Below, one piece after another: positions 1 through 60,853 of a DNA stretch of 64,000 nt (positions are counted from its first letter, which is position 1; each line of letters begins with the position of its first letter). The DNA is taken from assembly GCA_013239625.1 (NCBI GenBank), contig MU053365.1, positions 2,142,115 through 2,206,114 on the forward strand, read 5' to 3'. Made by a program: the position numbers and the translations under genes. Source of the DNA: Lama guanicoe. Its lineage: Eukaryota. The notes under the pieces were generated by a model. It searched no databases, was not told the DNA's origin, and was given only the letters and a program-made list of their open reading frames with translations.

Positions 1-510
1 CACCAGGAACACACCATTGGATAAACGAGTTGCGTGTATTATTATATCACAAGGAGGAAGAAGGCACACCATGGGCACCTTGAGACATTTCTAGAAGAGG
101 GTGTTAAGAAGGACTTCTTTTAGGAAATACGTATAGACAGAAAGGTTTAGGGCTTGTGGCAGGTGGTTTGGGGAAAGCTTTAAGGAAGCACGGCTTTGTT
201 CTGGGTTGGATGCTTTCAGGAAGTGGGATAATTCCATAATTGGCTATTTTAATAAATATTATGCATGGAGAGGGCAGACCAGAGTTGAGCTAAAGCTGTG
301 ACTGGTTAAAAAAAAAATCAGTCACTCACATTAAGTAAGATTGGGGAATGTTTGGTATTCTTTGGCTTGGACAATGTTCATGTTTTGGCTGTGTTCAGAC
401 TTGACCTTGGAGTGGTCTTTTTCTCTTGATCTGTCATGGTCACAGAGTGGCCTTAATGGATGTTGATGTTCTGTGATATTGTTTAGCTTCTGGATTATCA
501 GTGGCTGTTT
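1..510 (-). mobile_element. Old LTR relic (ERVL/ERV1 class, family uncertain), truncated by window edge
   Basis: Resembles recalled eutherian LTR consensus blocks (ggctttgttctgggttggatgct..caggaag; ggtcacagagtggcctt..gatgttgatgttctgtga). Family and orientation not certain. Confidence 0.45.
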
Positions 511-3500
511 TCCTTGGGCCAACAGACGTTTTGTCAGAAGACAATGGTAGTTAATAGCATAAGCAACAGAGAAAAATTCTTCCGTTAGAGAAAGTAAGTG
601 CGTTAGGCCTGACAAGCAAAGCTCATGTCAGAATATGCTGTTAAATTAACAAGAAATGCTCCTGGATAGAAGAATGGAAGTGGAGAGAGATAAAGATACA
701 TTAAGATGTTCTTAAGTCTGTCTGTTTCATAAATAGTTCAAAGAGGCTTATTTAAGAGCCTATTTTGAGCTGGATTCCTAGTGAAAAGTAAAAGTGTCTA
801 AATGAGAACAATATACCCATTTTGCTCAGCACCAGAAAGCTCTATAATTTGCTGGAGAGATAATAGAACTGTTACACAGACAAAACCGAAGCTTGTAAGA
901 GTCTGTTTACCACTGGCCTAATAGTAAGTCATCCTTTCTTAGCCTTTTCATTTGCAATTGATTTCTGGAGGTTGGAAACAAGTTCGTGACTCTGGATTTT
1001 AAAGTCAGTAGGATGAATCTGCTGCCTCGTGTCATGCTGGGTTGGAGGCAGCACTGGATTTGAAGGAAATAGAAAGAAACTTGGACTCGTAAAATGAGTT
1101 TGGGCAGGAGGTCCGATAAGCAAAATGAGTGACGAGGACATAAATACTAGAGGGTCACATCCAGTTGACCTCCGAAATCTATGTCAATTGTCAGGCCGCA
1201 GGGGGCTGGTGGGGAACTAGAAAGTCGCACCAGATACACTGCGGCAGCCACAGAGGAAGAGTGGGGTCACTAAGGCAACTCCGGGTATTCTGCTCCGATT
1301 GCTGAGCTGAGCCTAAAGGCTTAACTTTGAAGGAGACAGTTCACCAGAAGAAAGCATAAAGATCTAAACAATGAACTGCTGAATGGATTAATATAGAGAG
1401 CCAAAGTAGGGAATAGAACCCTCTTAGATACAGATTTTTTGTCGTCTATCAGTGGTGATACTATTCTAGCTGGCATTTCTTCTGTTTTGTTTTTCATACC
1501 ATAGCCCACCTGCCTCACCTCCAGGAATGGGCTGTTCATGCTTCCCATGTGGTTCCCATTGCTTCTTGTAGCATCTCCGCATGCACCAAATTCACAACTA
1601 TCCTTTCATGAGAAAGTGCCAAGGCTGAGAAGAAGCAGAGGCACCCTGAGAAATCTAGGTCAGCTTCATACAGGAACAAGAGAACCCAGGATCCAGGACA
1701 GCAATTTGCTTCGAAGCTTCAAACTCTCTTACCAGGATGAGTATGCTTGCATCAAATGCCTCCCTATTTCCATTTGGAATGATTTCCCGTCTATCTTGTT
1801 TGGAAATCATCTCATGTCTTTTCACATGATTTAATCTAGAGTCGGTGCTTAACCTGTATTTGCCAGTTGACTCTTTGGCAATTTAATCTCAGCACTTCTC
1901 GGTTTCCCCAAAGGCCAGGCTTTCTAATTTGATTTCATTTTATGCCCACTCCCCACCCCCTGACCCTCACCAAATTATCCAACAATTTTCAGTGACAGCT
2001 GCACAGTCTACCAAACATCCTAGTAACTATTGGTAAAATTAACCAAAGCAAATAAACAAGTATCAAAGCACTGAACACAGCATCTATTTTTTTTTCTAGA
2101 AATCAAGAATTCTTTTCAGATGCAATGAAAAAAACCAAGTATCCATTCTGTTTATAAGGAGGTACAATTACAGTTGCAATTTATCAAATTAATGTTTGAC
2201 ACGAGAAAAGAGATGCCAGGTTCATGTGTCCTTTATTGTTCTATAAAAGCCTTGTGTCTGCCTGATTGCTCTATGAACACAAAATTTTTAAACTGTTGAT
2301 GAGTAAAAGATGAGCTATCAAGACATCTTGACCTACTTCAGAATGTGCCAAATCTCAGTATGTATAAATTCAATTATATAATATTTCAAAGAAACTCTTT
2401 CTGTGAATGTCAAAGGAAAATTGCAAAGTTATATTTAACATAATTCCAAAAATTCAGAAATTATATTTACATTGATTTTAAAATTATATCTCTTAAAGAA
2501 TCCACATGGTCAAAATACTTATCACCTAAATGTAGAATGTGTAAAATGTAAGTCAAAAACTACCAGCAGATAATAAATAGAGTAACTGCCCTGCTATTTC
2601 ATCACTTTGTTCCAGATTCTCAAAAGCCCCTGCAGAGATCCATTTCTGTCAGTCTATGCTACTTCTGAATAAAGAAATTGTGCACACAGTGGCCTCATGG
2701 TGGACTGAGTCTTACATCATATGTCATTACCATCTTCAAGTCATAAAATGTTATTAGGAGCTTTTCCAATTTTCACTGGGAAAGGCTGAGCAAGAATAAA
2801 AGAATTTGAGGATATAGCCAAAGAGCAAGTCTATCTTCAAATCTAGATTAGAAACAAAAGTTTCTGGAACGAAACCAAAAGCTCCACATTTAGCTTGGAA
2901 GGAACCTATTCCGATAAGGATGTGTGGCTGCCCTGGCCAACTTTATTTCCTTCCTATATTAGTTTCCCTTTCCCTTGGATCTCTTGCTGCTGTTTCACAC
3001 AACGGTCTTAGGTGAGGGGCGCAGGGTAGCTAAAAGAAATGTATGGAGGCACAATAGGTAACTAGCCACTGTTAATTTTGGGTGCAAGATGCATCTCTCT
3101 AGAATGATAAACTGATTACATTCCAGGCAACCTATATTATGGGGAAATTCATTATGTAACCTCCCTCATTCACAAAGGGATTAAGTTATGGAGGTACCCT
3201 CCCGGCCAAAACTCAGCTCCTCTGGTCCTGGGCGGGACCATGTGTTAGAACATGGAAAGGGGCTAGGACTTAGTAAAGCAGATAACTCTGGACACACCCT
3301 GCAGGTCAGCAGATCCCTCCCTTCTTGCATATGCATGTGCTTACACATGTGTGCGTGCACACAAGCGTGCATGCTCACCCGCTAGAAGCTAGGCAGAGCA
3401 AGGCCAGAGTAGAAGCAGAGGACGTAGGAGGGAAGGTGCCTAGTCAGCACCTCAGTGAGCGAGATGAGAAGAGAGCTTAATATTTTTCAAAAGATTATTA

Positions 3501-5109
3501 GAATAATTACTTTTTCAGATGTATTTCTCCATTATTAAGTCACACTTAAGGCCACGAATATCATGCATCACAAAATATTAACATTTATTCGGACTCACAT
3601 ACTGACAGAGACTGGAGCGTTTCACCTGCCTCTTTATCACTGAAACGTAAAATCAGTCCTTTTCCTTTTGTTGTTTGTGACTCCTGTTACAGTGATCCGG
3701 TAGCCAAGATTCTTCTGGTTGCAACTGACAGATGGACTCAAACTCTATCCAGCCATTAAAGGGGTTTTACTGGTTTATGAAACCAGGTCGGAAGGACAGG
3801 GTTTGGCAAGAGTTGGTGGCTGAGCACGTGAGGAGGTTTGGCAGTGTTGCTCTTTGAGTCCCCCTCACTTGTAGGCATCAAGGAGAGTACAAGTACCAGG
3901 GTAAACTGACACCCTGGTGAATAACATGGCTGCCGGGACTGATCGGGGCTGCTGACCACTGCGTATGACTTTTATTTTATGCATTCTATATTCAGCATCG
4001 CAGAGGCCCCTCTCCCCCCGCAAAATGAAAATTCAATGGAATTATAAGGAATAATGAATATGTAAAATAGTCACATATGAACATTTCCTTTGGGGTTTGT
4101 GGTGGCCACAGTACACACAGAGCAGCTGCTGTCATATGCTTTGTGGAATTATTGTAATCTCTCTCTGGAATTTCAGCTGTGTTGGGCCAATTTGTTCCGC
4201 TCCGATTTAATATAATGCTCTGTCTGACTAGGTGTAGATATTTTAAACCACAGATTGCAGTCCCTCCCCCCCACACACACATACCTTTTGAAACACTTAT
4301 ACTTTTCGGGTTGATTACCCCAATTAACCGAGAGTAGGCTGAAGCTGAAGTGAAAAGGAACACCGTAACCATTATTTACTTCTAGGAAGCAAGAAAATAA
4401 AGTGGCTTTTATCAAAACACAGATTTCAGAAGAGACAGATGAAAGAAAAGTAGATGACTATAAGAGTGCTCTAAACCCGTGAGGGAAACTGCTGCCCAGT
4501 TTCAGGGAAGGCTGGGTGCCATGGGAGAGAGAGGGCCCGTCCAGGCGCCTTCTGGGAGATAACAGTGTCTGCCTCTGGAAGAGTATTCCGCAGTGGTATA
4601 CAGGTGGAGGGAGGGTGTCAGCATGTGAGATAGAAAGGCAGAGAGCAGAAGGCGAGTCAGAGGATGCTGAAGTCTGGATGGTGACCCATTGCCTGTTTCC
4701 ATAGAGATAATGCTGTGTAGGTCATGGGCATCAGCCCAAAGTCACAGGCCATGGGCCACGTGACCAGGAACCTCTTCAGTACCCAGGGGGAAAACAAAGT
4801 TTTTTGCTCTAATAGAAGTGTCTTTTCTTTTTCCTTTAAAATATTGATTAGTCATTCTGGAATGTTCCAAGGATATAGAAAAAAAGAAAAAAGAAAAACA
4901 AACATGTATCCACCTCCAGTGAACAAATGATAATTGATCCTTTGGTTGTTTACCTCAAATCCTTGTTGGGGTGCAAAAGTAAAGGCCTGGAGACTGCTAG
5001 TTGGCCCAGAAGATCTCTTTGTGCCTTTTTCTTCAGTAGCAGAACCCCTGGCAGAGCTGTGCACAGGGCTTCTGAGAAGCAAAAGCCATACACCCTAGCC
5101 CCCTTCCAG

Positions 5110-5280
5110 GCTCTCTGGGACAGCGTGACTCAGTTACAGCCAATGAGATGTGAGTGGAAGGGGCGCCCCCTCCCCCGTCCCCTTTGCTGAACATTTCATA
5201 GCAACTGTGAGCAATAAACTTCTGCTGTTTAGAAGCCACTCAGTCTATGGCATTCTATTTTAACAGCTCAAACAAAGACA
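5110..5280 (+). mobile_element. MLT1 (MaLR) LTR 3' fragment
   Basis: Typical MaLR 3' end: aactgtgagcaataaacttctgctgtttagaagccactcagtctatggcattct. Confidence 0.7.
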
Positions 5281-5284
5281 GTTT

Positions 5285-5730
5285 AGGACACACTGATTTT
5301 GAGATGTCTAATGGACATTCAGTTGGAGATGCTCAGTAAGCAGCTGGATGTGTGTATTGGGAGTTCAACGCAGGGATCTAGCGGGAGATAAAAATCTGGG
5401 CATCGTTAAGAGTATAGGTGGCGTGGAAAGCCATAATCCTGGATGAGATGACATAGGGAATTATTGCAAATTGAAAAGACACGCAAAGAGCAAGTTTTAG
5501 GCACTTCACTGGACGTTGCAGAGCTGTGGGGGATCTGGCAAGGGAGACTGAGAAGGACAAAGCAGATGTGTAAGAGGAAACCGGAAGTGAATGTCTCAGC
5601 CAGGTGAAGACAGGATTTCAGGAAGCTGACAGTAATCACTGTGTCCACTGCTATTTAAAGATCAGGAAGTGAGAGGAATGAGAATGTACTGTGAGACGGA
5701 GAAATGTGGGTGTAATTTGCTAACCGTTAC
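5285..5730 (-). mobile_element. L2 LINE fragment
   Basis: L2-like purine-rich blocks (ggagatgctcagtaagcagctggatgtgtgt, ctggatgagatgac). Confidence 0.65.
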
Positions 5731-6970
5731 ATGGGCTGCTTTAGTGAATCCTTGTTTTACTATTTTCACCAGGTAAGGATTATATTATCTCCAAGTTAGA
5801 AGGATATAAAAGACCTCCATCTAACCATTCAGCCCAGATTACAGGTTCCTTGACAACTGTTCGTACAGCCTTTGCTTACGCCCTTCCAGTAGCAGTTAGC
5901 TCTCAACTGTGTAAAAGAATCATTTCCATTTTTGGCCCTAATGGCTCCTCGTGTTCAATATGTGTGCATTTTAATTTCTACCCATTGTTCAAAGTTCTGC
6001 TTCTGTGGTCACTCAGTACACAGCACTGCTATCAAGTATACAGATGGCACTTCAGATATTTTGAAAAATCTCTGATTCTTTAACTTCCACCAGATCTGAG
6101 CCAGGTCTGCCTAGCTACCACCCAGGTTCAGGGGGACCATGCTTTGGTCGCATCTCGCCACCCTACTCTCCAGTGAAATGCAGTAGAAGAAGGTCCTTTC
6201 AAGAGCACTGTTCTCCACTCCCACCTCCAATCATGGCGCCTCTCCTCCAGGCCCTGGTGCGCTGACTGATTGTCATTCATCCTTCTGTGCCTTGTCCATT
6301 ATCCAGCCATTGCAAGGGGGAAATGGCTGATCAGAAGCCTGATGTTGACAACCTTGTCATTGCTTTACCTGTTCAGCAGCCCTTACCCCAAGCGCACAAT
6401 GAGGACAACGCAGGCACTTTCCAGGTACTCTGAGCAGTGGCCCCTAGATCCAGTACCACCTAAAACCCATTCCAGACCCCAATGTCAACTCACCCTAACA
6501 TGGCGTCGGGGTGTGAAGTCAGAAAACATGGTGGCCCCACTATAATGCTGCTACAGGCTCACTCTGGGGAGCAAGGAGATGACCTCATCCCATTTACTAA
6601 GCCTACCTGTCACCCTTGTGTGAAAGAATGTTCCAGAAGAAAGTAGGTACAGAGGGAGGGTTGTCACACGAGTGGGTAAAAGTCAGTGGCTCTCTGACAA
6701 AACAAACATCCAGAGAAACTTCTGAGAGGAGCTATCAAGGCCAGCCCTCCGCCAGTCAGCCTCGAGTGGGGGCCGGTCCCACTTCGAGCCCGCTGCCCTG
6801 TCGGCCACGGCCCCTCCCATCACCTCAGCTCCGGCGCGAGTACAACGCCAGGAGCCGGCGCAGCGCGCGCTTACCTAGGCCCAGGCCCGGGCGGCCGCCA
6901 GCGCCGTCGCCGCGGCTCCGTGAGGACTTCAGCGAGGCCCACACGGAATGGGCCCTCTGCCCCCCCTTAC

Positions 6971-7092
6971 CAGTCATCGACAGTAACAACAGCCCGAAGG
7001 CTTTTTTCAACGACACATTTTCTAATGAGCGCCGCCTCGGCGCCCCTGGGCTCCGGGGTACCCAGCAGAGGCACAGCGGCCTCGCCAGCGCC
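6971..7092 (-). other. Probable first exon of an unidentified leftward-transcribed gene (5' end hidden in N gap)
   Basis: Inside CpG island; ends at minus-strand donor CTG|GTAAGG (6971/6970); second strong donor TAG|GTAAGC at 6875/6874. Translations match no protein I recognise, so it may be 5' UTR. Confidence 0.55.
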
Positions 7093-7175
7093 NNNNNNNN
7101 NNNNNNNNNNNNNNNNNNNNNNNNNNNNNNNNNNNNNNNNNNNNNNNNNNNNNNNNNNNNNNNNNNNNNNNNNNN
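7093..7175. other. Assembly gap (83 N)
   Basis: Run of N within the GC-rich island. Confidence 1.
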
Positions 7176-7369
7176 GCCCCCTCCGCGGGGCCGCCCCACG
7201 GCCCGGAGCGCTCCCCCGCCTCACGGCCCTGCGCCCCCGGCGCGCGGCGCCCAGCGCGCTGTCAGGTGACTCCACAAAGCTCGCAGTGCTCACCTTGTGT
7301 GCCGCTGGTTGTTTTCTTTAACTATAGTGAAAATTAGGGTTACTTCTACTGAGTCACACAGTCACAGAC

Positions 7370-8180
7370 ATAGTTGTGGTTAGTTATAGTTACTACCTTT
7401 TTATGGCTACTAGTTATAGTCATGATTGATTATGACTAATATTGTTCCTTATAGTCATTAACTAGTTGTGCTTACAGGTTGTGGCTACTAACTAGTTGTG
7501 GCTCCTGGTTAATGCCTGATAACTCGTTTTGGTTACTAGCTATTATTACTCATTAGCCCTGGTTACTAATTTTTGTGTGATAACTAGTTGTGACTACCAG
7601 GTATAGCTGCAAACTAGTTCTGATTACAAAGTTTACAGTCTAGTCTCAGTCAACAAATTATAGCTGCTAGCTAGTTATGGTTACCAGGTTACGCTATTAA
7701 CTAGTTTCAGTTACAAGTTTTGTGGATCTAGCTACTTTCCTTTCTGGATTGGGCTACTAACTAGTCCAGTTACCATTGTGTGATAGCCAACTAGTCATGA
7801 TCATCAGGTTGGGCTTGTTAAGTAGTTACTTGTTTATAGCTGCTAACTAGTTGTAGTTACTAGGTATCACTGTTGACTAGTTTCAGTTACCAGTTTGTGA
7901 CTGCCAACTAGGTCTGGTTTCTGGTTGTTGCAACTAACTAGTTAGGTTACTAAGTTGTACTACTAATAACTTGAAATTACCAGTCTGTGACCATTAATTA
8001 GTTTTGGTTGCTGCTTTGTGGGTGTTAACCAGTTACGGCTCCAACGTGCAGTTTCTGGTTTGTGGCTTCTAACTAGTTGTGGTTGCTAGGTGCTGCTACT
8101 AATTGTGTTCACTAGGTGTTACTTTGGTTAATCGTGATTATTGACGTGACTACTAACTGTGGCTGATAGCTGTGGTTAAT
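7370..8180. repeat. Degenerate ~30-bp tandem array, approx. consensus AACTAGTTGTGGTTACYAGGTTRTRGCTRCT
   Basis: Perfect ACTAGT at 7409, 7461, 7491, 7583, 7613, 7700, 7760, 7790, 7846, 7876, 7937, 8072; spacings mostly multiples of ~30, with degenerate copies in the intervening phase positions. Confidence 0.85.
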
Positions 8181-8497
8181 TGGAGCTGTGATTCGTAATG
8201 CTTATGGCTGTTGTACCTATGGTTAGGTCGGTTATGTGTATATTTAAACAGAGTCTTGCTCACTTACCAAGTCCAAGTTAAACTCTTTCCTCCTCTAAGA
8301 TCTTCCCAGATGCTTACGATCAGGATCCGTCCCTCCTTCTCCCCCAAGGCTGTGCACACAAGCTTAGTGCAGCACTGTGCGCGTTCTAGTCATATGTCTC
8401 TGTTTGCTTCGTTCAGTGGATTATGAGCTCCTGGGTGACAGAGCCGCATGCCTACCATTTCTACACGCACTAGAGCAAGGAAGTGGGTCTTAAAGCG

Positions 8498-8505
8498 TGA
8501 CGTCA
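8498..8505. promoter_or_regulatory. Full palindromic CRE (TGACGTCA)
   Basis: Exact consensus with CpG retained, ~1.2 kb from the CpG island; function not shown. Confidence 0.4.
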
Positions 8506-8654
8506 GTCACAGTTAACATCACTCAGAATAGAATATCAGAGTGTGAAATGGTTTACTTTACTCTGGTATGCGCATGCACATGGGTATAGACCTATACATA
8601 TATACTGATTCTAGATTGTACCAAAACTATAGCCCTGGTTCTACTCTGATAGAC

Positions 8655-9095
8655 GTTCATTCGCTCATTCAGCAAGTATTTATCAAGCACTAATCCCGAC
8701 CTGTGGAACAGAGCTGTGAACAAAACAGACAAAGATTCTTGCCCTTGTCTGGCTTACCTTCTAGTGGCATGGGATGGACAATCAACTCTAGAGACAATAA
8801 GTATACAGTAAGTGAGAAAGTGTAGTGCTACGGAATAAAGAAGATGTGGAGTAGGTAAAGGGGACTGGAGGTACCTTGGAGTGAGGGGAAGGCTGCTATT
8901 TGTAAAAAGAATGGGGTTACTGTAGGCCTCAGTGAACAGGTGGGATTTGATTTGAAAGGCGTAAAGGCGACAGTGATGTGGATGCCTAAGGGGAAGGCAT
9001 TCCAGGAACAGCCAGTGCCCAGACCCTAGTCAGGGAATGAAGCTGCTATGATTAGGGGACAGCAGGGAGGCCAGGGTGGCCGAAGCAGAGTGAAG
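8655..9095 (-). mobile_element. L2 3' fragment
   Basis: cattcgctcattcagcaagtatttatcaagcac..gtgaacaaaacagacaaa is the reverse complement of the L2 3' end. Confidence 0.75.
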
Positions 9096-9814
9096 TAACC
9101 ACATCCTGCTCCCCCTCACCATGCACCCGACGTGCCTTGCACCCGACACACTGCTCCCTCCCCATCTCCGCCTCACTCTGAGCTACCATCTGGCATCCTC
9201 TGTCCCCACTCACAGGACTTAGACAACCAGCTTTCCTCTCTCTGGACGGTTTCTACATCAGCTCACTAGGGTGACCGACCTCCCCAGCCACATGCATGTC
9301 CCAGGACCATGGCTCGTTCCAGCCTGCTCTTCCAGTGTATGGGCAAAGTTATCCTCCAGTACAGAAATGTCACTCAGCACTGCTCCTTGCTCACCTGCCT
9401 GTTACGGTCCAGGCAGGAGGCCCTCCCCCTGGCTCGGGGAAGGAGGCTAGGGAGGTGTTCTTGGTTCCTGGAGGTTCCAGGGACAGGAAGGAATGGGGCA
9501 TCAGGAACTCTGGACTGCAGTCCTTGGCTGAGTCACAAAGGCTGACAGGAGAACTGCAGATCCATCGCCTGTGCCTGGTGGGCAGCGTATCAGGCACATT
9601 AGCCCGTGTGACCTGCCCGAGGGTCCAGGTCAGGTTCAGGGAACTCAAAGGACTTTCCCAAGTTCACACAGCCTGAGTCTTGGAGTTGGCGTTTGCATAG
9701 GACTCCTATCTTTCTCTTTCTATTTTTTGAAAAATATACTTTAAACATTTTTTATGAATTCCATGTTTGATTTTTATTTTAACACAATGTTTAAGAAGTT
9801 AAATCCTACACAGC

Positions 9815-9921
9815 TTTTTTTTTTTTTTAAAGAGAAGTAAGCCTTTATTTCTGTGTTTCACAAATCAAGCTGGCTGAGTCGGTTGCTTTGCAGTGATTAC
9901 TCAGAGACCAAATCCCACATC
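9815..9921 (-). pseudogene. RPLP0: 5'-truncated processed pseudogene fragment of ribosomal protein P0 (last codons, 3' UTR, polyA)
   Basis: Minus strand reads GATGTGGGATTTGGTCTCTGAGTAATCACTGCAAAGCAACCGACTCAGCCAGC..GAAATAAAGGCTTACTTCTCTTT then A14. This matches the recalled RPLP0 mRNA end (DMGFGLFD* ..AAGCAACCAACTTAGCCAG..AATAAAGGCTTACTTC). Confidence 0.8.
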
Positions 9922-11409
9922 TGGGCTCTCAACCTTGTACTGCGCTCACTCAAGCCCCAAGTCATCTGTGGGCACATGAGACTAGACACATCATAGGATC
10001 CCATCCAATCTCTAAAGTGTGGTGATTCTGGTCAAAAGACAAAGCCTACGAGAATAGCTACTCTGCCATCCTTTTCTAGCTTGCTTCTTAATGGCTCAGA
10101 TGGCTCGCAGTTGGTGTCTCTGTATTAGGTGGGAAAGGTGCTTTCGTGGCATGTGAGATTTTAAGCCTGCCAGCAGACAGGCAGACAGACCCCAGGCTCA
10201 TTCTTCCATCCAGGGGGGGTTCTTATCCCCATTCAGATTAAGTAGCTTTGCAGTCCCTTCATGTCTACAGCCTGGACCTCAGACCACTGGCCACAGGAGT
10301 AGGCAGACAAGCAAGGGAGGCTGGGTTGGTGGGTGTATGTTTAGCCTCATGACTGGAAAAAGCTCACTGTGCTTGGCCTTCTTGCACTGGAGCAAGCGCA
10401 GAATAGCATGTAAGGTGAGCATATGGGAATAGCAAATGGGCACTGCACCTGTTTTTTAGGGTTCCCTGCTTTGGGGGAAGACTCAATGTGCAATCTCAAT
10501 CTCAATTTTTGGAAAAAAAAATGAAACAAATTGTCTCTGTAACAGGTAAGAAAGTTTTTGGTCGAGGATATGAAGTGTGACTGGATAATAATGAGACTGG
10601 AATCTTACTGATTCAATTCAGCAAATGTTTATCTGGATGAAGGACATCGAGCCAGTCACAAAAGTGGCTGCAGAGATTAGTCAGCCAGATTCTCTGACTT
10701 GAAGGGACATGGAACAAAAACATATGCAACGTGGGGGTCAAAGTTTCTCTGACACTGTTGACAGAGGGAAAAAATGAGAAAAAAACCCTTTATCACACTG
10801 GGGACTCAACCCAAAGGAAGAGAGAGTTGGGGTACATGGGGTCCATTTTGGAATAGTGGTTCATGGTGGACCTAAACCAGGCAGCTCACCAAGGTGGTTT
10901 CCAAGAGAACTTCTTTACATTCATTCACAGAAGGGATTAAAAAGTTGAATGAGCCAGGGAATCTTTCAGGGATGGGGAGACCTATGGTTATTTAAAGGTT
11001 CAAGGTCAGATGAAATAGCTAAAATATTCTGGCAAGAGACCATCTTTCTCTTTGGGACTCAAGGGCACAGCTGCAAGAATTATGTGAAAAGGCCCTGATT
11101 TAGAAGGACCCCAAAACTCTGCTGACCACCTAGGAGCATCATATGCCACCGAGGCCATGGGAAGGGCAGGGCGGTCACAACACTGCCTGGCTGCCTAGAG
11201 TCAAGTGCCACTGCGATTGTCTTCAAGGTTGGTGCAGCCTTCAAACACTCACATCACTGTCACCATAAATCAATATGGAGAATGCTACAAGATGAGACCC
11301 ACAAGTATTTTGAGCAATGGTGAGGCATCATTTAGCCTCCCCAAGTCAAAAGCCTCATTGAAAAAATAAAACCCACATTTTTATTAAAACCATCATTTTG
11401 TAATAATAA

Positions 11410-11615
11410 CTCATGGTTTAATAACACTTGCTATGAAACAAAGCATGCATTCATCTTTAACCTCGTGTATTCTGCATAACAATCCCACAATACAATGCGG
11501 GCAGGACAGAAAACATCTCTGCATTCTAGATTAAGGAATTGGCACGCTGAGAGGTTAATTGATTTGTGCAAACACACTTAGCCTAACAAAGAGTGGAGCC
11601 GGAATTCAGTTCACT
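11410..11615 (-). mobile_element. MIR SINE
   Basis: MIR core reverse complement (gagaggttaattgatttg..aaagagtggagccggaattca). Confidence 0.6.
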
Positions 11616-11629
11616 TCAACAGACACAGC

Positions 11630-11950
11630 GTGTCCTATGTGCTTTTTATGTGATAGGCACAGTGTTAAGAGTTGGGGAACTAGAAAAAAGAATAAAATGA
11701 AACACAGCCCTGAGGACCCCACCACTGATGGAGAAGCAGACATGTAAAGGACCTGTGCTAAGGCAATGTCCTAAATGCTCAGATGTATGAAAACCCTCTG
11801 GAAGCACAAAGAGGGGGCACAGAATCCAGAGGGTGAGGGGTATCGGGGAAAGCTTCCTGGAGGAGATGATACCTGAATCAAGTGTTAGAAAGGTAGTAGA
11901 AGCTAGCCAGGTGAAAACAGGAAGCTATAGGACTACACGAGGGACCAGCT
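11630..11950 (-). mobile_element. L2 fragment
   Basis: aaagcttcctggaggagatgatacctgaa..gctagccaggtgaa, L2-like. Confidence 0.6.
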
Positions 11951-12224
11951 AGTGATGTAAAGAAGGGCGGCGTGGATGAGGAATTACAAACAGTTAACTA
12001 TTGCTATGCCAGTACGGAGAGGGGTACACTGGTAAGAAGCAACCAAAACAAATGTCCCAGAATGATCCTGGGCATAAGAATATGTTTAACTTCTCCAAGT
12101 GATTCTAACCCATAGCCAGGGCTGAGGATTCTCAATACAGACCTTCCCTAGGCTGTGGTTTTCATGTTTAGAGTGCAAAGAAGTCACCTGGGTACTCTCC
12201 GATATCTTCCCACTGTATGCAAAT

Positions 12225-17224: not shown

Positions 17225-18845
17225 CAGGACCTTGGACCTTGGTGCAAGGATACAAATGGAGGCCAGTTTAAAATATGTAAATATTTTAAAAATATAAATC
17301 AATCTATTAAATAGTTAAATAAAGTATATTTTATCATCTAATCTTGACAAGTATAGCTCCATGATAACTATCAAAAGAATGTATAAAGCTATGTTTTATA
17401 CATCACAGAAATTTGTCAAAATATCAAAGGCACCTAAAATATTATTACACAGGCCTGATGTTCTGTGGATTGGCTTCACAATGTTTGGATGAAAAACAAA
17501 ATAAAGATCTACCTAATTCATAAATTATTATATATTTATTTAACGAGATAGCTCATTTTCACCATTATTTAAATATAATCTTTTTTTTTAAATTGAAGTA
17601 TGGTTGAATACAACATTGTGTTAGTTTCAGGTGTACAGCATAGTGAGTCAGCATTTTTGCAGATTGCATTCCATTATAGATCATTACGAGATAATGGGTA
17701 TGATTCCCTGTGCTATGCAGTATATCCTTGTTGCTTATCTATTTGATATATAGTAGTTTATATCTCTTAATTCCATTCCCCTAATTTGGCCTTCCCCTTC
17801 CCTCTTCTGTTTGGTATAACCTTTAATTATGCTGGTATACTCAAGATTTTTGTATAATTTGTATTGAAAGTAAAGATGTAAAGGATTAAAAATACAAGAG
17901 TACTCCAAGTGTGCAAAATTTTGGTATATTTTTATAACAATGTAAACTATTTTTTTAAAAAAATGTGTTAGCATACTTACAAAAGTTATTATTTTAAATA
18001 TTCAAAATAACCTATTAAATCTAAAAATATAAATTATGATTGACAAAGATAAAATTTTGAAATCAAAGTTAGGTAAATAAAGCTCATACCTTTGGGGAAA
18101 AATTTAACTTATTAATTTTTAAATTGAAATAACTATTAAATAGTTTTATAAAACGATTCACAACTCTAGTTCAATATCCTTATCCTTGCTCATGTAAAAA
18201 ATTGATATCACACTTTTTATTTATTAGCATGTAAAGAATTGATATTATACAGTGTATATATTAGCTCAGTACCTCTGGAGAAATAAAATTATGAAAACAC
18301 AAAGCATTTAATATTGAATAATGTTCTTCAGCTGCTATGTGCAACTATTAATTTGTGAGTATTTCTAGAACCATGAACATAAGAAAGCAGAAGAAAGAAA
18401 ATAATTAGAACACTCAGGAACAATGTTATGGAAGAATCTATTACATTCACACTATCAAAGAAGATGTAAGAATTAACTTGTCTTTTCTGCTACCTAAGCG
18501 CTTCTACCACCAAAATGCTCCCTGTACTCTGAAGCTCCCTGTCCTTTGTCCCTCTCTGATGTCAGCAGTGGCACAACCGCATTTGTACAGTTTCCTTTTG
18601 TTTGGGGGTCACAGGACAAGAGATACAGGGCTTGAACAGCCATTAGTCATAAGAATGGAATGCTATGGGTGACACTGTGCCAGCACTGAGCACAAGATTC
18701 TGAATGACACAGGCACTCAGTTTTATTTTTTTAATAAATTAATTCCTAAGTATATGTGATTCTACCACCCAGGACCCTCTAAATCACAGGGTTCAGTACA
18801 GGAGGCTTTCTTCTCCAGGTCTAAGGGCACAACCATGTTAAGCCA
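17225..18845. mobile_element. Probable old AT-rich hAT-type DNA transposon relic interrupted by an L1 tail
   Basis: Very AT-rich interior with GC-richer ends (gtgcaaggatacaaatggaggcc; cccaggaccctctaaatcacaggg); family unresolved. Confidence 0.35.
17584..17814 (-). mobile_element. Young cetartiodactyl-type L1 3' tail
   Basis: T-run then aattgaagtatggttgaatacaacattgtgttagtttcaggtgtacagcatagtga; TSD tataa(t/c)cttt at 17574 and 17815. Confidence 0.85.
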
Positions 18846-24749: not shown

Positions 24750-26110
24750 TCTCCAGAACAAGGACAAAGAGATGGAAATAATGAGAGAATTTGAGGGATA
24801 GAAGAAGAGAAAGCAAAAATTCAGTTTGTAGGTAATTGTCTATCCTGAGAAAGAAATTGAAATAAATGGAGCTGAAACAATAATCAAATGTATAATAGAA
24901 GAAAATTTTCCTGAGCTGTAAAGAGTCTGCTGATCAAAAATGTCCATTGTATTTCAGTTAAAGTTAATGAAAAGAGAACAACACCTAGACTTATCCTGGT
25001 GACATTTCTGAATTACAAGGACAAAGAAAAAATTATCCTACATACAGCTCAGCAGAAAAATCAGGTAACTTACAAAGGAAAAAAACCCAGTCTGGTCTCA
25101 GACTTCCGTTCTGCAATCTTGAGCACCGGAAGAAAGTGAAGCAATGTCTATAGAGTTCTGAGGGAAAAAGGTTGTGACCAAAGTTTTCTTTACCCAGTCA
25201 AGGTATCATTCATGGATAAAAGTTACATTCCACCATGAAGAAGTAGCAGCCGTGAACCTACATGCTCTGAACAACAGAACTGTCAAAAATAATGTTAAAA
25301 ATATAAAATGATCAAATAATCGACCTGGAATACATACCAGAAAAAAAATCTAAGGATAGTAAAATGAAATCAAATAAGAATTTTAGAGTTTCCTTAGGTT
25401 AGTCAGGGCATAAGGCAACAATCATTTAGAAAATAAAATGGGAAGATGACCCGTTAAATAGAGAATAACATTCATAATAGAAACAAAAGATTTACTGGAC
25501 CTAAATGAAGAAAATGTAAAAATTATGAAAAATTTTTATAAGATATTATTGCAGATCAATTGACACTTTTAATTATCTCTTGGATAAGGATATTAAATGT
25601 TATAAGTAAATTTACCTTCTAAAATTAGTTCATAGTTTTAAAGTATTTCAAATCAAAATAGAGTAAAAACTGAATTAAAATTATATTCTAATGTATCTGG
25701 AAAAGTGAAAATTGGTATCTTGCAATAGTTAAGATCATTTTTTACAAAAGGTATTGCAGGAAGATTTGTTTAACCAGATATTAAAATAAACCATAAGTCA
25801 CAGGCATTAAAAGAGTTTGATACTGACACAAGAATCAACAAATAGATCACTTGAACACACTCGATTGCCCTGAAACACACTTTTTTATAAAAACAAACTC
25901 AACACATTCAAAATCAATGACCACAAACCAATGGAGAAATTTTTTCCTTTAAAATGTTAAGAAAAGAAGGTAATATTTGGAAACCACTTATGTAAATCCT
26001 CACCTCAAATCAAATGCCAAGGTAAATTTCAGATGGATTAAAGAGCTAAATGTAAAATACAGAAGCCCTGAAAACTCTGAAGAAAACGTAGATGAATACT
26101 TAACTTATCA
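24750..26110 (+). mobile_element. Old L1M (ORF1/ORF2 relics)
   Basis: A-rich degenerate L1 blocks (gaaaattttcctgagctg; aacacctagac; aaatttcagatggattaaagagctaaatgtaaaa); ORF 25977 reads KVNFRWIKELNVK, like L1 ORF2. Confidence 0.75.
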
Positions 26111-31545: not shown

Positions 31546-33768
31546 AAGAAAAGCTTATTCTGATCACAGAAAACAATAAGCAGCTACTGAATAGATGATC
31601 TCCAGTAACAACTGAACAGACCTAATTCAAGCATAACTTTTGAGCCCTAAGCAGAAGCAGCAACATGAACTGAAAAAAAGAAAACCAGCAGGAGACAATT
31701 GATTCTGAGGTTTAACCTAACCTACCCTGAAGATCTAATTACTTTGAAGCCAGAGAACACATACACCAAAAAGCACCTAACAATGGACGGATACTAAGTG
31801 TAAGATTTCTACAGATACTCGGAGTGACAACTGCTCCGCCACTTACATAGGGAAGTAGAAGATCACATTGGAAAGGCAAGTAACGAAGGGCCAGATAAAC
31901 GAGAATGAGTATCCAGTGCCCAGCCAGGACCGGATGGGGCGTCATTACTGATGTTTGAGAATGAGAAAGGAAGGATTTAAATTGTGCTTTATTTTCCATT
32001 TTTTCCCCTTCCTGTTTTACATATCTTTTCATTTATCCCAGCAGTAGAAGCGACAGATGTCTAAGATGTTTCCAGTGTACCCTTATTTTTATGGACAATT
32101 GTACTTGCACAGCATTGTGAACAGCAACATCTGAGCAAGGCGGATCCCATGTGGTAGTCCTCTGTGGCTGCATGAAGACACTGACGTGTTCACTCATCCC
32201 GATGCGGTTTGTTAAGGGCTCCGTGGCTTAGAGAAAACCCGATCGCCCTATGCCTGGCATACTTCATGAGATTCCTCCATTTCATTAGTGAGAATGGGGT
32301 GCAGCTTTGTAGAAAGCTCCTTAAGAAAGACACTGCTCTTTCCAGTCATAGTTGGTCACTGGGCAGGAACGTGTGTCCACTGTGTGCCCAGCACAGTGTA
32401 TAATGACCATAGATTATACTCTTCCAATTCGGATGAGAGAATTAAAATGAGAGAGAATACTTTAGCAGAAATATACATGTGGTAGTTCAGTGCAAGGGTA
32501 AAACTGCAAACTCACAGAGGGAGTCCACTCAAAATGTGATCATTTGTTTATGCAATTGTGTCTACATGCCATGCATTTGTTTCAAGGGTCTGATACTAAC
32601 ATGTTACAGGTTTAGGGTATTTCGATATCCAATCATTCGACAGAAAAGCTACCTCCCTTATTATTTTCATATTCCCAGGTGGAGAAGTCGGCATTTACAT
32701 GCACCTATTTCAGTTTCTCAGGCTGCTAACGGTAGATTTTATGAGAACACTTCTTGTATTCAATAAGAAAACAGTCAACAAACATTATTGAGAGCTTTCA
32801 CCATGCCAAGAGGGGTAACAAAAACATTTGGGAATTTATGGTGTAATTGTTTCAAAGCAAAGACCTAAGGTATTTACCATCTTGTATAAGATTATGTTCA
32901 GGACACAATTAGAGAAAGAGAAGAGGAGGTTGGCTCTATTTTCTGACACCGGATGAAGAAAACTGACAGGGACTCTCCAGAGAGATGACAGGTAAAGGAA
33001 ATGCCAGAATGATTACCAAGGGAATGGAAATCTCTAGACTTGAGGTTGATTGGAGACGAAAGGATATTATACATAACCTAATTAACTTAATGCATCCTTA
33101 ATTAGGTTAAGGGAGTGTCTACATTCTAAAGGTTCAAAGACATTTAGGCTTCTGCCAGAATTTCCTTGGAGAAAGAAATGCGGTTTTTCATTTTTACACA
33201 AAATCGTGACGAGTAACAGTCTTACCCACAATTCTGAAGGAAACAAAAAAAAAATGACAGGATATTAAAGAATTTACTATTATTGTATATCTTTGATTAT
33301 CTCATGTTGAAACAGGTCTACAAGGTACTTCTTACTCATAAGGTTTCTTTCATTAACTCACATATTATTGAAGCCATTCTTTGGTTTAAATACATTTTAG
33401 AGTTTATAAATAGTTCGATTTCTGCTATAAATTGACAGTCTCCTGTCACTTATGTGAATTCCTTCAGAAAATAGGTTTTCTGTGAATCCCCCAAGTGCCC
33501 AGACTACTCTGTCGGAGCTTCTAAGCTCTGGATACTCACAGACTCCTGGTGGCAGCATCACCAGAAACCCCGGGGTCAGCCCTCAGAGTTAACCATTATC
33601 AATCCCATGTTCAACTGATGTACAACCCTCCTAAAAGAGAAAGTGGGTTTTTGCTGTGATCTCCATGTCAGGGATTTCAGCCTATATGCACCATGACAAT
33701 TTTGAGTTCTGCCCTTTTTTAGTTGTCTAACCAGCGATGTGAACAGTCATTATGCAGCCGTGCAAATT

Positions 33769-36017
33769 CAGGCAGACCTCGGAGATGCGGCAGGTTTGGT
33801 TCCAGCCTACCACAGTAAAGCAAATATTGCAATAAAGCGAGTCACGCAGTCTTTTTTTGTTGTTTGTTCATTTCCCAGCACATATAAAAGTTATGTTTAT
33901 TTTATATTGTAGTCTATTAAGTGTGGAAGAGCATTGTGTCTCAAAAACAATGTACAGACCTTAATTAAAAACACTTTATGCTAAAAAATGCTAACCAACA
34001 CGAGAGCCTTCAGCAAATTGTGATCTTTTTGCTGGTCAACAGCCTTGCCTCCGTGTTGACGGCTGCTGACTGATCAGGGTGGTGGTTGCTGAAGGTGGGG
34101 GTGGCTGTGGCAACTTCTTAAAATAAGACAACAAGAACGTTAGCCACGTTGATTGATTCTTCCTTTTATGAGCCATTTCTTTATAGCATGCAGTGCTGTT
34201 TGATAGCATTTTATGCACAGTAGAACTTTGAAAGTTGGAGTCAATTCCCTTAAACCCTGCTGCTGCTTTATCAGCTAAGTTGTTGTAGCATTCTAAATCC
34301 TTTGTTATTTCAATAATTTTCTCAGCACCTTCACCAGGAGCAGATTCTCTCTCAAGAAACCCCTTTCTTCGCCCATCCATAAGAAGCAACTCCTCATCCC
34401 TTAAAGTTCTATCACGAGACTGCAGCAATTCAGTCACATCTTCAGGCTCCACTTCTAATTCTAGTTCTCGTGAAATTTCCACCACACCTGCAGTTACTTC
34501 CCCACTGAAGTCTTGATCCCCTCAAAGTCATCCATGAGAGTTGGAATCAACTTCTTCCTAACTCCGGTGACTGTTGATATTTTGACCTCTTCCCATGAAT
34601 CATGAATGTTCTTAATGGCACCTAGAGTGGTGAATACTTTCTAGAAGGTTTTCAAATTATTTTGCCCAGATCCATCAGAGGAATCACTATGCATAGCAGC
34701 TATAGCCTTAGGAAATGTATTTCTTAAATAATAAGAGCCAAGAGTCAAAATGACTCCTTGATCCACTAGCTTCAGGGAGGATGCTGCACTCCCAGACATG
34801 AAAACAACATTCATCTTGTGCAGCTCCATCACAGCTCTTGGGTGACCAGGTGCATTGTCAATGAGCAGTAATACTTTGAGAGGAATCTTTTTCTCTGGGC
34901 AGGAGGTCTCAACAGTGGGCTTAAAATATTGAGTAAACCATGTTGTGAACAGATGTGCTGTCATCCAGGCTTTGTTGTTCCATCTATAGAGCACAGACAG
35001 AGTAGATTTAGCATCACTCTTAAGGGCCCTAGGATTTTCAGAATGGTAAGTGAGCAGTGGCTTCAACTGAAAGTCACCAGCTGCATTAGCTCCAAACAGG
35101 AGAGTCAGCCTGTCCTTTGAAGCTCTGAAGCCAGGCTTTGACTTCTCCTCTCTAGCTATGAACGTCCTAGATGGCATCTTCTTCCAATAGAAGGCTGCTT
35201 TGTCTACACTGAAAATCTGTTGTTTAGTTTAACCACCTTCATGAATTCTCTGAGCTGGATCTTCTGGAGAACTTGCCTCAGCTTCTGCATCAGCACTGGT
35301 ACTTTCACGTTATGGAGACAGCTTCTTTCCTTAAACCTCATCAACCAACCTCTCTACTGGCTTCAAACTTTCTTTCTGCAGCTTCCTCACCCCTCTCAGC
35401 CTTCACAGAATTGAAGAGAGTTAGGGTCTTGCTCTGGACTAGGCTGTGACTTAAGGAAAGGTTGTGGCTGGTTTGATCTTCTATCCAGACCACTCCAACC
35501 TTCTCCACGTCAGCAATAAGGCTGCTTCACTTTCTTATCATTCATGTGCTCACTGGAGTAGCACTTGCAATTTCCTTTTCCCAGCATTCACAACTTGGCT
35601 AATTGTTTGGTGCCAGAGACCTAGCTTTCAGCTATCTTGGCTTTTGACATGCCTTCCTCACTAAGCTTGATCATTTCTAGCTTTTGATTTAAAGCGAGAG
35701 ACATGTGGCTTTTTTCTTACTTGAACACTTAGAGGCCACTGTAGGATTATTTATTGGCCTCATTTCAATATGGTCGCATCTCAGGTACTCAGGAGGCCGA
35801 AAGAGAGGGAGAGAGATGGAGGAAGGACCATTATGCGGAGCAGTCAGAGTACACACAGCATTTATCAGTGAGGTTTACTGTGTTGTATGGGCCCACTATT
35901 GGGACAATGACACCAATAGACGTGCTCAATGCAAGGTTGCCACAGACTTTCAATATGTGAAAATCACAATATTTGCAAAGCAGAATAAAGCGAGTGCAAT
36001 AAAACAAGGTGTGCCTG
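33769..36017 (-). mobile_element. Tigger1 (pogo/Tc1-mariner) DNA transposon, near full length, disrupted transposase
   Basis: TIRs caggcagacctc / aggtgtgcctg. Transposase pieces at 34641-35177 ([34 protein letters not shown]) and 34036-34485 ([15 protein letters not shown]), separated by stops/frameshifts. Confidence 0.95.
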
Positions 36018-38828: not shown

Positions 38829-38963
38829 GGGGAAGGGTATAGCTCAAGTGGTAGAGTGCATGCTTAGCATGCACAAAGTCCTGGGTTCAATTCCCCAGTA
38901 CACCCTCTAAAAATAAATAAACCTAATTACCTCCTCCCTACAAAATAAAAATAAAATAAAATA
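38829..38963 (+). mobile_element. tRNA-Ala-derived SINE (camelid vic-1 type)
   Basis: ggggaagggtatagctcaagtggtagagtgcatgcttagcatgcac..ctgggttcaattcccc: A/B boxes, AGC anticodon arm, unique tail and (TAAAA)n end. Confidence 0.85.
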
Positions 38964-38980
38964 AAGAAGTAGCTTCAATA

Positions 38981-39174
38981 AAATTTAACCACTATATAAA
39001 TACATAAACAACAAATTTCTTCTGTTCAGCACAGGGAACTATATTTAATATCTTGTAATAACTTTTAATGAAAACGAATATGAAAAGGAATATACGTATA
39101 TATATGCATGACTGGGACATTATGCTGTACACCAGACATTGACACACTGTAACTGACTATATGTCAATTAAGAA
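38981..39174 (+). mobile_element. Young L1 3' tail
   Basis: agcacagggaactatatttaatatcttgtaataac..tatgctgtacaccagacattgacaca. Confidence 0.85.

Positions 39175-60590: not shown

Positions 60591-60853
<263 letters not shown>

Follow-up and report, generated by a model that had tools for sequence, protein, structure and literature searches.

An old, heavily decayed minisatellite, non-coding and with units of both 30 and 31 nt, lies beside a CpG island in DNA of Lama guanicoe, and one eight-base core within its units, TAACTAGT, is better kept than the remainder, a modest yet reproducible sign. The whole stretch analysed, referred to here as the window, comprises 64,000 nucleotides of contig MU053365.1 and is mammalian and gene-poor, and its L1 tails have a camelid appearance. 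With slightly less than even confidence, the array is read as a repeat in decay that retains its core as a putative homotypic DNA-protein binding cluster.

7338..8171, no strand: degenerate minisatellite of about 28 head-to-tail units of 30/31 nt, each made of two related 13-14 nt halves and a short linker
7460..8026, no strand: the best-preserved units, used for statistics (n=19; mean column conservation 0.74, mean pairwise identity ~0.60)

Wrap-around profile alignment over 7338-8171 gave 28 full rows and 2 partial ones, with 19 clear units and heavy decay of the units at the edges, and the units are about 74% like their own consensus. An earlier note on this DNA had claimed some 25 degenerate units; the array is real, the four units quoted are letter-correct at 7460, 7490, 7582 and 7845, and the count rises to about 28 full units. 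The 12 perfect ACTAGT hexamers claimed were confirmed by count at 7409-8077 (7 more occur in the remainder of the window), against a mean of 1.48 and a maximum of 7 in 2000 dinucleotide shuffles of 7370-8180; in shuffles of the same kind and number AACTAGTT, present in 8 copies, was expected 0.1 times and reached 2 at most. The spacing given for the hexamers, mostly 30, 60 or 90 bp, did not hold, only 5 of the 11 intervals (in order 52, 30, 92, 30, 87, 60, 30, 56, 30, 61 and 135) being exactly 30 or 60 and none 90. Self-matching of the array exceeded all 1000 shuffles at lags 13, 17, 30, 31 and 61 (z 4.4, 5.8, 6.2, 5.0 and 7.1), the first two of which bear out the proposed internal duplication of about 13+17. 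There was no enrichment at lag 60 (z 0.7), and lag 61 is strongest with lag 60 flat because the array mixes units of 30 and 31 nt.

Head-to-tail units of 10-60 bp above chance, which define a minisatellite, are found in the array, and the earlier description of it as an old one is supported by the ~60% pairwise identity of units and by periodicity above that of shuffles. The unit likeness sufficient for Tandem Repeats Finder, the mark of a young, unstable minisatellite, is absent (pairwise identity ~0.60); when that program was run as the note had advised, at score 30, the array itself was missed, the sole report there being a 22-base row at 7371-7392. Base composition over 7370-8180 is T 316, A 188, G 174 and C 133. 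No stop-to-stop ORF of at least 45 aa lies between 7337 and 8199, stops occurring in all six frames, as the claim of no long ORF had it. A mucin-type coding repeat exon was ruled out by the six closed frames and by pieces of 13, 31, 25 and 29 nt, a 61-mer higher-order repeat by a unit identity of 0.598 at both lag 1 and lag 2, and an interstitial telomeric sequence or telomere relic by the presence of a single telomeric hexamer.

7334..7339, plus strand: the sole TTAGGG of the array, at its left end

Scored with the unit profile, the array reaches 502 bits and nothing elsewhere in the window exceeds 19 bits on either strand, so the array is single copy in the window. A metagenome scan with the unit pattern returned 7 loci, none of which held an array (profile at most 34 bits against 502). 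Four array words looked for in print matched only a synthetic standard, judged to be chance, and the word ACTAGTT is absent from the supplements (8 files) of PMC12307798. Other repeats in the window include a two-copy 37-bp tandem duplication with 81% matches (18191-18265) and, at 60606-60841, 72 units of (AT) with 34 units of (TG) after them.

The expansion was old and nearly star-like, since unit identity is flat with distance (0.58-0.62 across lags 1-9) and linkage between columns is absent (mutual information 0.1347 against 0.1354 when permuted). One later event is visible within it.

7658..7896, plus strand: younger internal duplication, copies 7658-7720 and 7834-7896, 53/63 identical

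Two pairs of columns carry the signature of methyl-CpG decay, being mixtures of TG, CA and TA without CG: columns 10-11 hold TG 10, CA 4, TA 1 and CG 0 (17 units), and columns 17-18 hold TG 4, CA 7, TA 4 and CG 0 (18 units). From this a long germ-line methylation of the array is inferred. Columns of G or C erode fastest, with substitution rates per site of 0.23 for G>A and 0.16 for C>T against 0.055 for A>G and 0.085 for T>C. The fitted divergence between units and their ancestor is about 0.2 per site, which at mammalian rates would predict an orthologous array in other mammals. Only 2 CpGs remain in 7310-8030 (o/e 0.08), between the island (0.94) and a CpG-retaining zone (0.56). The array had been called CpG-poor, which is correct for 7310-8030 and does not apply over 7370-8180, where the value of 0.21 is that of the background (0.22, measured over 9500-64000).

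6760..7305, no strand: CpG island, GC 0.73, CpG o/e 0.94, with an assembly gap inside
8030..8600, no strand: zone beyond the array, as seen from the island, that has kept CpGs, o/e 0.56

The island is likely to be the promoter or first exon of a gene, and the assembly gap in its middle (7093-7175, 83 bases) probably hides the transcription start. Searches with three island reading frames found no relatives, and a full HMMER search with one island frame gave 1 match (E 4.7e-4) to a repetitive protein, judged to be chance. Dense CpG in the island stops at 7257, with a last CpG at 7303; the distance of about 60 bp between array and island edge given previously is right for the last CpG only and not for the dense part. 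The zone at 8030-8600 includes a palindrome at 8498-8505, which we take to be a perfect CRE, and a TGCGCA word at 8569, and is a possible weak or testis-type second promoter. About 1 kb to the left of the island is a double MYB-like site (5721-5729). A pachytene piRNA promoter was ruled out, the island being without a strong MYB word.

Conservation within the units is uneven, and this is partly ordinary decay, in the form of the two CpG-decay column pairs and the erosion of G and C.

7459..8077, no strand: the spared core, TAACTAGT; 8 copies are perfect and another 8 have a single mismatch

Perfect copies start at 7459, 7489, 7581, 7698, 7758, 7844, 7935 and 8070, and no further one in the same orientation exists in the rest of the window. 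In the 19 units the palindrome columns average 0.88 against 0.68 elsewhere, and the best-kept window of 8 columns is TAACTAGT at 0.89. Unanchored searches found the same word best from 9 of 10 seeds in the 19 core units and again from 9 of 10 when the search took in the entire array, the remaining seed leading to the palindrome, one base further on. The better preservation claimed for the palindrome is therefore upheld as sparing, with the best window shifted by one base and the contrast owed in part to CpG decay and G/C erosion; the GTTRCY block, said to be likewise favoured, is kept only slightly better than average (0.78 against 0.74).

Several neutral models were set against this clustering of well-kept columns, all of them without sequence-context mutation rates and gene conversion. 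Substitution-only simulations, which took in CpG hypermutability, growth driven by duplication and a correction for choosing the best window, gave P of 0.003 or less in 12 of 12 settings, and with stronger G/C erosion the observation was matched in 0 of 600 runs in each of 8 settings. An end-to-end null with deletions and re-alignment (701 runs) had a mean of 0.105 and an sd of 0.026, reaching at least 0.19 in 1 run, at least 0.17 in 10 and at least 0.15 in 41; the observed values were 0.18-0.22 for the core units and 0.15-0.21 when all of the array was used. The most assumption-free approach, column permutation either free or within base and CpG classes, gave P of 0.003-0.022 in 7 tests. All of these significances are inflated, because the array was chosen for its conspicuous palindromes.

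The chief rival to a binding cluster is a neutrally decaying fossil minisatellite, functionless beyond flanking the island, in which the unevenness would come from CpG decay, fast G/C-to-A/T erosion, positions already variant among units during expansion and chance conspicuousness. It is a serious possibility, held with confidence clearly below even. It is favoured by the CpG-decay column pairs, by the excess of G>A and C>T over the reverse changes, by the strong decay of the edge units and by what is seen for each base taken separately: G alone is kept differently in the core and outside it (17/19 against 44/75, P 0.015, from one core column), A, C and T show no difference, and T columns are equally kept inside the core (64/74) and outside it (81/92). 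The younger duplication has no core sparing either, its copies differing at 2 of 16 core positions against 8 of 47 others, which is not significant, and both core differences disrupt TAACTA. In a second short duplicate pair the figures were 0 of 7 core differences against 4 of 21 others, also not significant. Against neutral decay, the clustering of well-kept columns was improbable in every neutral model tried (P ~0.001-0.02), and the spared window opens with a published factor consensus. It is because of the younger duplication without core sparing that neutral decay is nearly as likely as a site cluster.

Arrangements of this type are known beside promoters without imprinting. According to the available part of PMC12307798, imperfect tandem repeats occur in, or no more than 200 bp from, 342 non-imprinted human CpG-island promoters, which also favours the neutral reading. 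The array resembles these TR-CGIs, as there described, in being imperfect and of unique sequence, in exceeding 400 bp and in lying no more than 200 bp from a CpG island. It differs in unit length, theirs being 50-150 nt against 30/31 nt here, and in character, the TR-CGIs being mostly primate additions whereas the present array is AT-rich, CpG-depleted, very old and beside a putative promoter. It is a TR-CGI by position and not by unit length.

The site-cluster reading turns on the identity of the word that opens the core.

7319..8075, no strand: TAACTA words on either strand, n=16; published HMBOX1 consensus

TAACTA is the known consensus of HMBOX1 in the portion of PMC7862700 available. TAACTAGT opens with it, and it occurs 16 times against 2.8 expected (2000 shuffles, none above 9); no other 871-base stretch of the window has more than 5. 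This count is not independent evidence, because repeats multiply any word that they contain, so the weight rests on the match between TAACTA and the spared columns. No longer HMBOX1 motif was found in print, only the six-base consensus; we presume that a longer HMBOX1 logo spans all eight bases of the spared core. Two other candidates were tried and rejected: a MYB array (5 sites against 2.1 expected, matched in 112 of 2000 shuffles) and an RFX palindrome array (3 half-sites only). The homeodomain protein HMBOX1/HOT1 is the best-fitting candidate binder, with about one chance in three within the site-cluster reading.

The same protein is described in the available text of PMC3680732 as binding AGGGT of telomeric DNA, with no enrichment on the four variant repeats there. 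This does not favour the array as a target. With its one TTAGGG, the array is not a telomeric repeat. The likeness to HMBOX1/HOT1 sites (PMC7862700 and PMC3680732, as far as available) is that the best-kept columns open with TAACTA in 16 copies, as predicted sites. That the whole is an ancient, mammal-wide minisatellite kept as a putative non-telomeric, high-occupancy HMBOX1/HOT1 array beside a CpG-island promoter is unlikely.

Under the preferred reading, a decaying repeat with its core held as a binding cluster, a motif of 13-14 nt would have doubled to give the 30/31-nt unit, which would then have expanded in essentially one burst to about 28 copies beside the CpG island, as periodicity and the star-like units indicate. 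The array would afterwards have been methylated in the germ line and have decayed, so that its CpGs disappeared along with many of its G/C positions, as the TG/CA mixtures suggest. One word per unit, TAACTAGT, did decay more slowly when set against the neutral models tried, and the most likely cause would be weak selection for keeping double-stranded DNA sites in a homotypic cluster next to the island promoter. Site number rather than helical phase would probably matter, and by placing several copies of a factor beside the promoter the cluster would adjust its activity. Of what a site cluster should show, the array has one factor word in 16 copies, and this word is better preserved than the remainder of the unit; the younger duplication shows no such sparing. 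The complete loss of CpG in the decay columns also counts against a site cluster, because it argues for long germ-line methylation and not for open chromatin.

The closest functional parallel is the MORC3-repressed element near IFNB1, a tandem repeat which, in the available part of PMC13373173, acts as a homotypic cluster of SPI motifs. It shares with the array an imperfect-dimer unit and many copies of one factor word, and motif number, not repeat sequence, would likewise be what is conserved. The differences are that its core units are 192 bp, more than 95% identical and of demonstrated function (same source), whereas the units here are ~74% like their consensus, carry TAACTA and are known from sequence alone. 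If the sparing is selective, the array would, by analogy, work like that element. A helically phased version of the binding array was rejected: the earlier claim of phasing at about three helical turns fails for 17 palindrome positions, which are not on one helix face (Rayleigh R=0.07 at 10.5 bp); nominal significance was reached at a single period of the six tried (10.4, P 0.009, uncorrected). Register is broken because units of 30 and 31 nt are mixed with shorter ones.

A role in RNA has also to be considered, and splice-donor-like sites near the island bear on it.

7293, 6970 and 6874, minus strand: strong splice-donor-like sites, from a consensus scan only

In 6300-9500 there are 11 strong donor-like sites on the minus strand against 2 on the plus strand (P 0.02, in a region chosen after looking), and over the whole window 65 and 71. 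The bias points to a gene that runs out of the island on the minus strand; the array would then lie either upstream of that gene or within an exon made by read-through. An exon-like segment at 1521-1624 (minus strand) was noted by eye from its pyrimidine-rich acceptor and strong donor; it has no Pfam match and may be a non-coding exon of a gene leaving the island. That the array is the repeat domain of a non-coding RNA is improbable in either of two forms. One is a minus-strand transcript with the array in an exon ending at donor 7293, displaying UAG-rich words that are presumably Musashi/DAZAP1-like; the other is a divergent plus-strand transcript that leaves the island and extends as far as the AATAAA at 8834, displaying ACUAAY words that we take to be QKI-like. 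The minus-strand bias of donors speaks for an RNA domain, as do 8 copies of ACTAAY against 1.1 in shuffles and folding of both strands somewhat better than 20 shuffles (z -2.8 each). However, an equal score on both strands is expected of repeated palindromes, ACTAAY begins with two bases whose columns are poorly conserved (0.58 and 0.61), the minus strand lacks an acceptor-like site between 8267 and the array, and the array matches no Rfam family at gathering score. Among the 16 sequencing runs listed, 5 whose kind is not stated held ~0.8 of the words and 5 RNA or possible-RNA runs held 0.05-0.11, neither figure being evidence of expression.

It is very unlikely that an ancient transposon or LTR element inserted beside the island and that the array is a tandem repeat from its interior. 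Transposon domains are the only Pfam matches among 258 ORFs of the window: 109 ORFs or ORF parts of at least 45 aa in 1-12000 gave none, and 149 of the 186 ORFs of at least 62 aa beyond 12000 gave 2, both of this class, the 37 outside that scan being mostly L1, Tigger-like and simple repeats. Old remnants are abundant in the window, among them a DDE domain at 34644-35228 and an L1 ORF1 piece at 24915-25136, and such transposons can carry internal repeats. Against this stand the confinement of the unit profile to the array and the 8 inverted pairs listed in 7200-8400, which are short (12-24 nt) and none of which is convincing as a terminal inverted repeat. The DDE domain ORF (minus strand, E 8.5e-34) belongs to a DNA transposon at 33700-36000, which is presumably Tigger-like. 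At 38835-39170 a tRNA-derived SINE-like element, with a tRNA-like part at 38835-38906 (Rfam tRNA, 30 bits), runs directly into what we take to be an L1 3' end.

An imprinting or methylation-control repeat of Rasgrf1 type acting on the island is the least credible reading and nothing supports such a role, for although a tandem array adjoins a CpG-rich segment as at mouse Rasgrf1, where the repeat is 40 copies of 41 bp in the available text of PMC3314240, and one YY1-like word lies at 6497, there is no CTCF core match in the window (simple pattern; 83 island bases are N), a single TGCCGC in 6000-9500 and so no cluster, an island still at CpG o/e 0.94, no imprinted gene found at the locus, and an arrangement common at non-imprinted promoters in the available part of PMC12307798. 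The methylation boundary or imprinting element that the earlier note proposed is likewise unsupported, given the same lack of CTCF core matches and the lone TGCCGC.

If decay has been neutral, the array is no more than a common kind of fossil repeat. Should its core be under selection, it would be a regulatory repeat too decayed for standard annotation, a dead minisatellite reduced to a site cluster. Were HMBOX1 the binder, the array would be a genomic target open to testing, for a factor that is known chiefly at telomeres, and if it is truly an HMBOX1/HOT1 array then a telomere-binding homeodomain protein would have a natural regulatory target.
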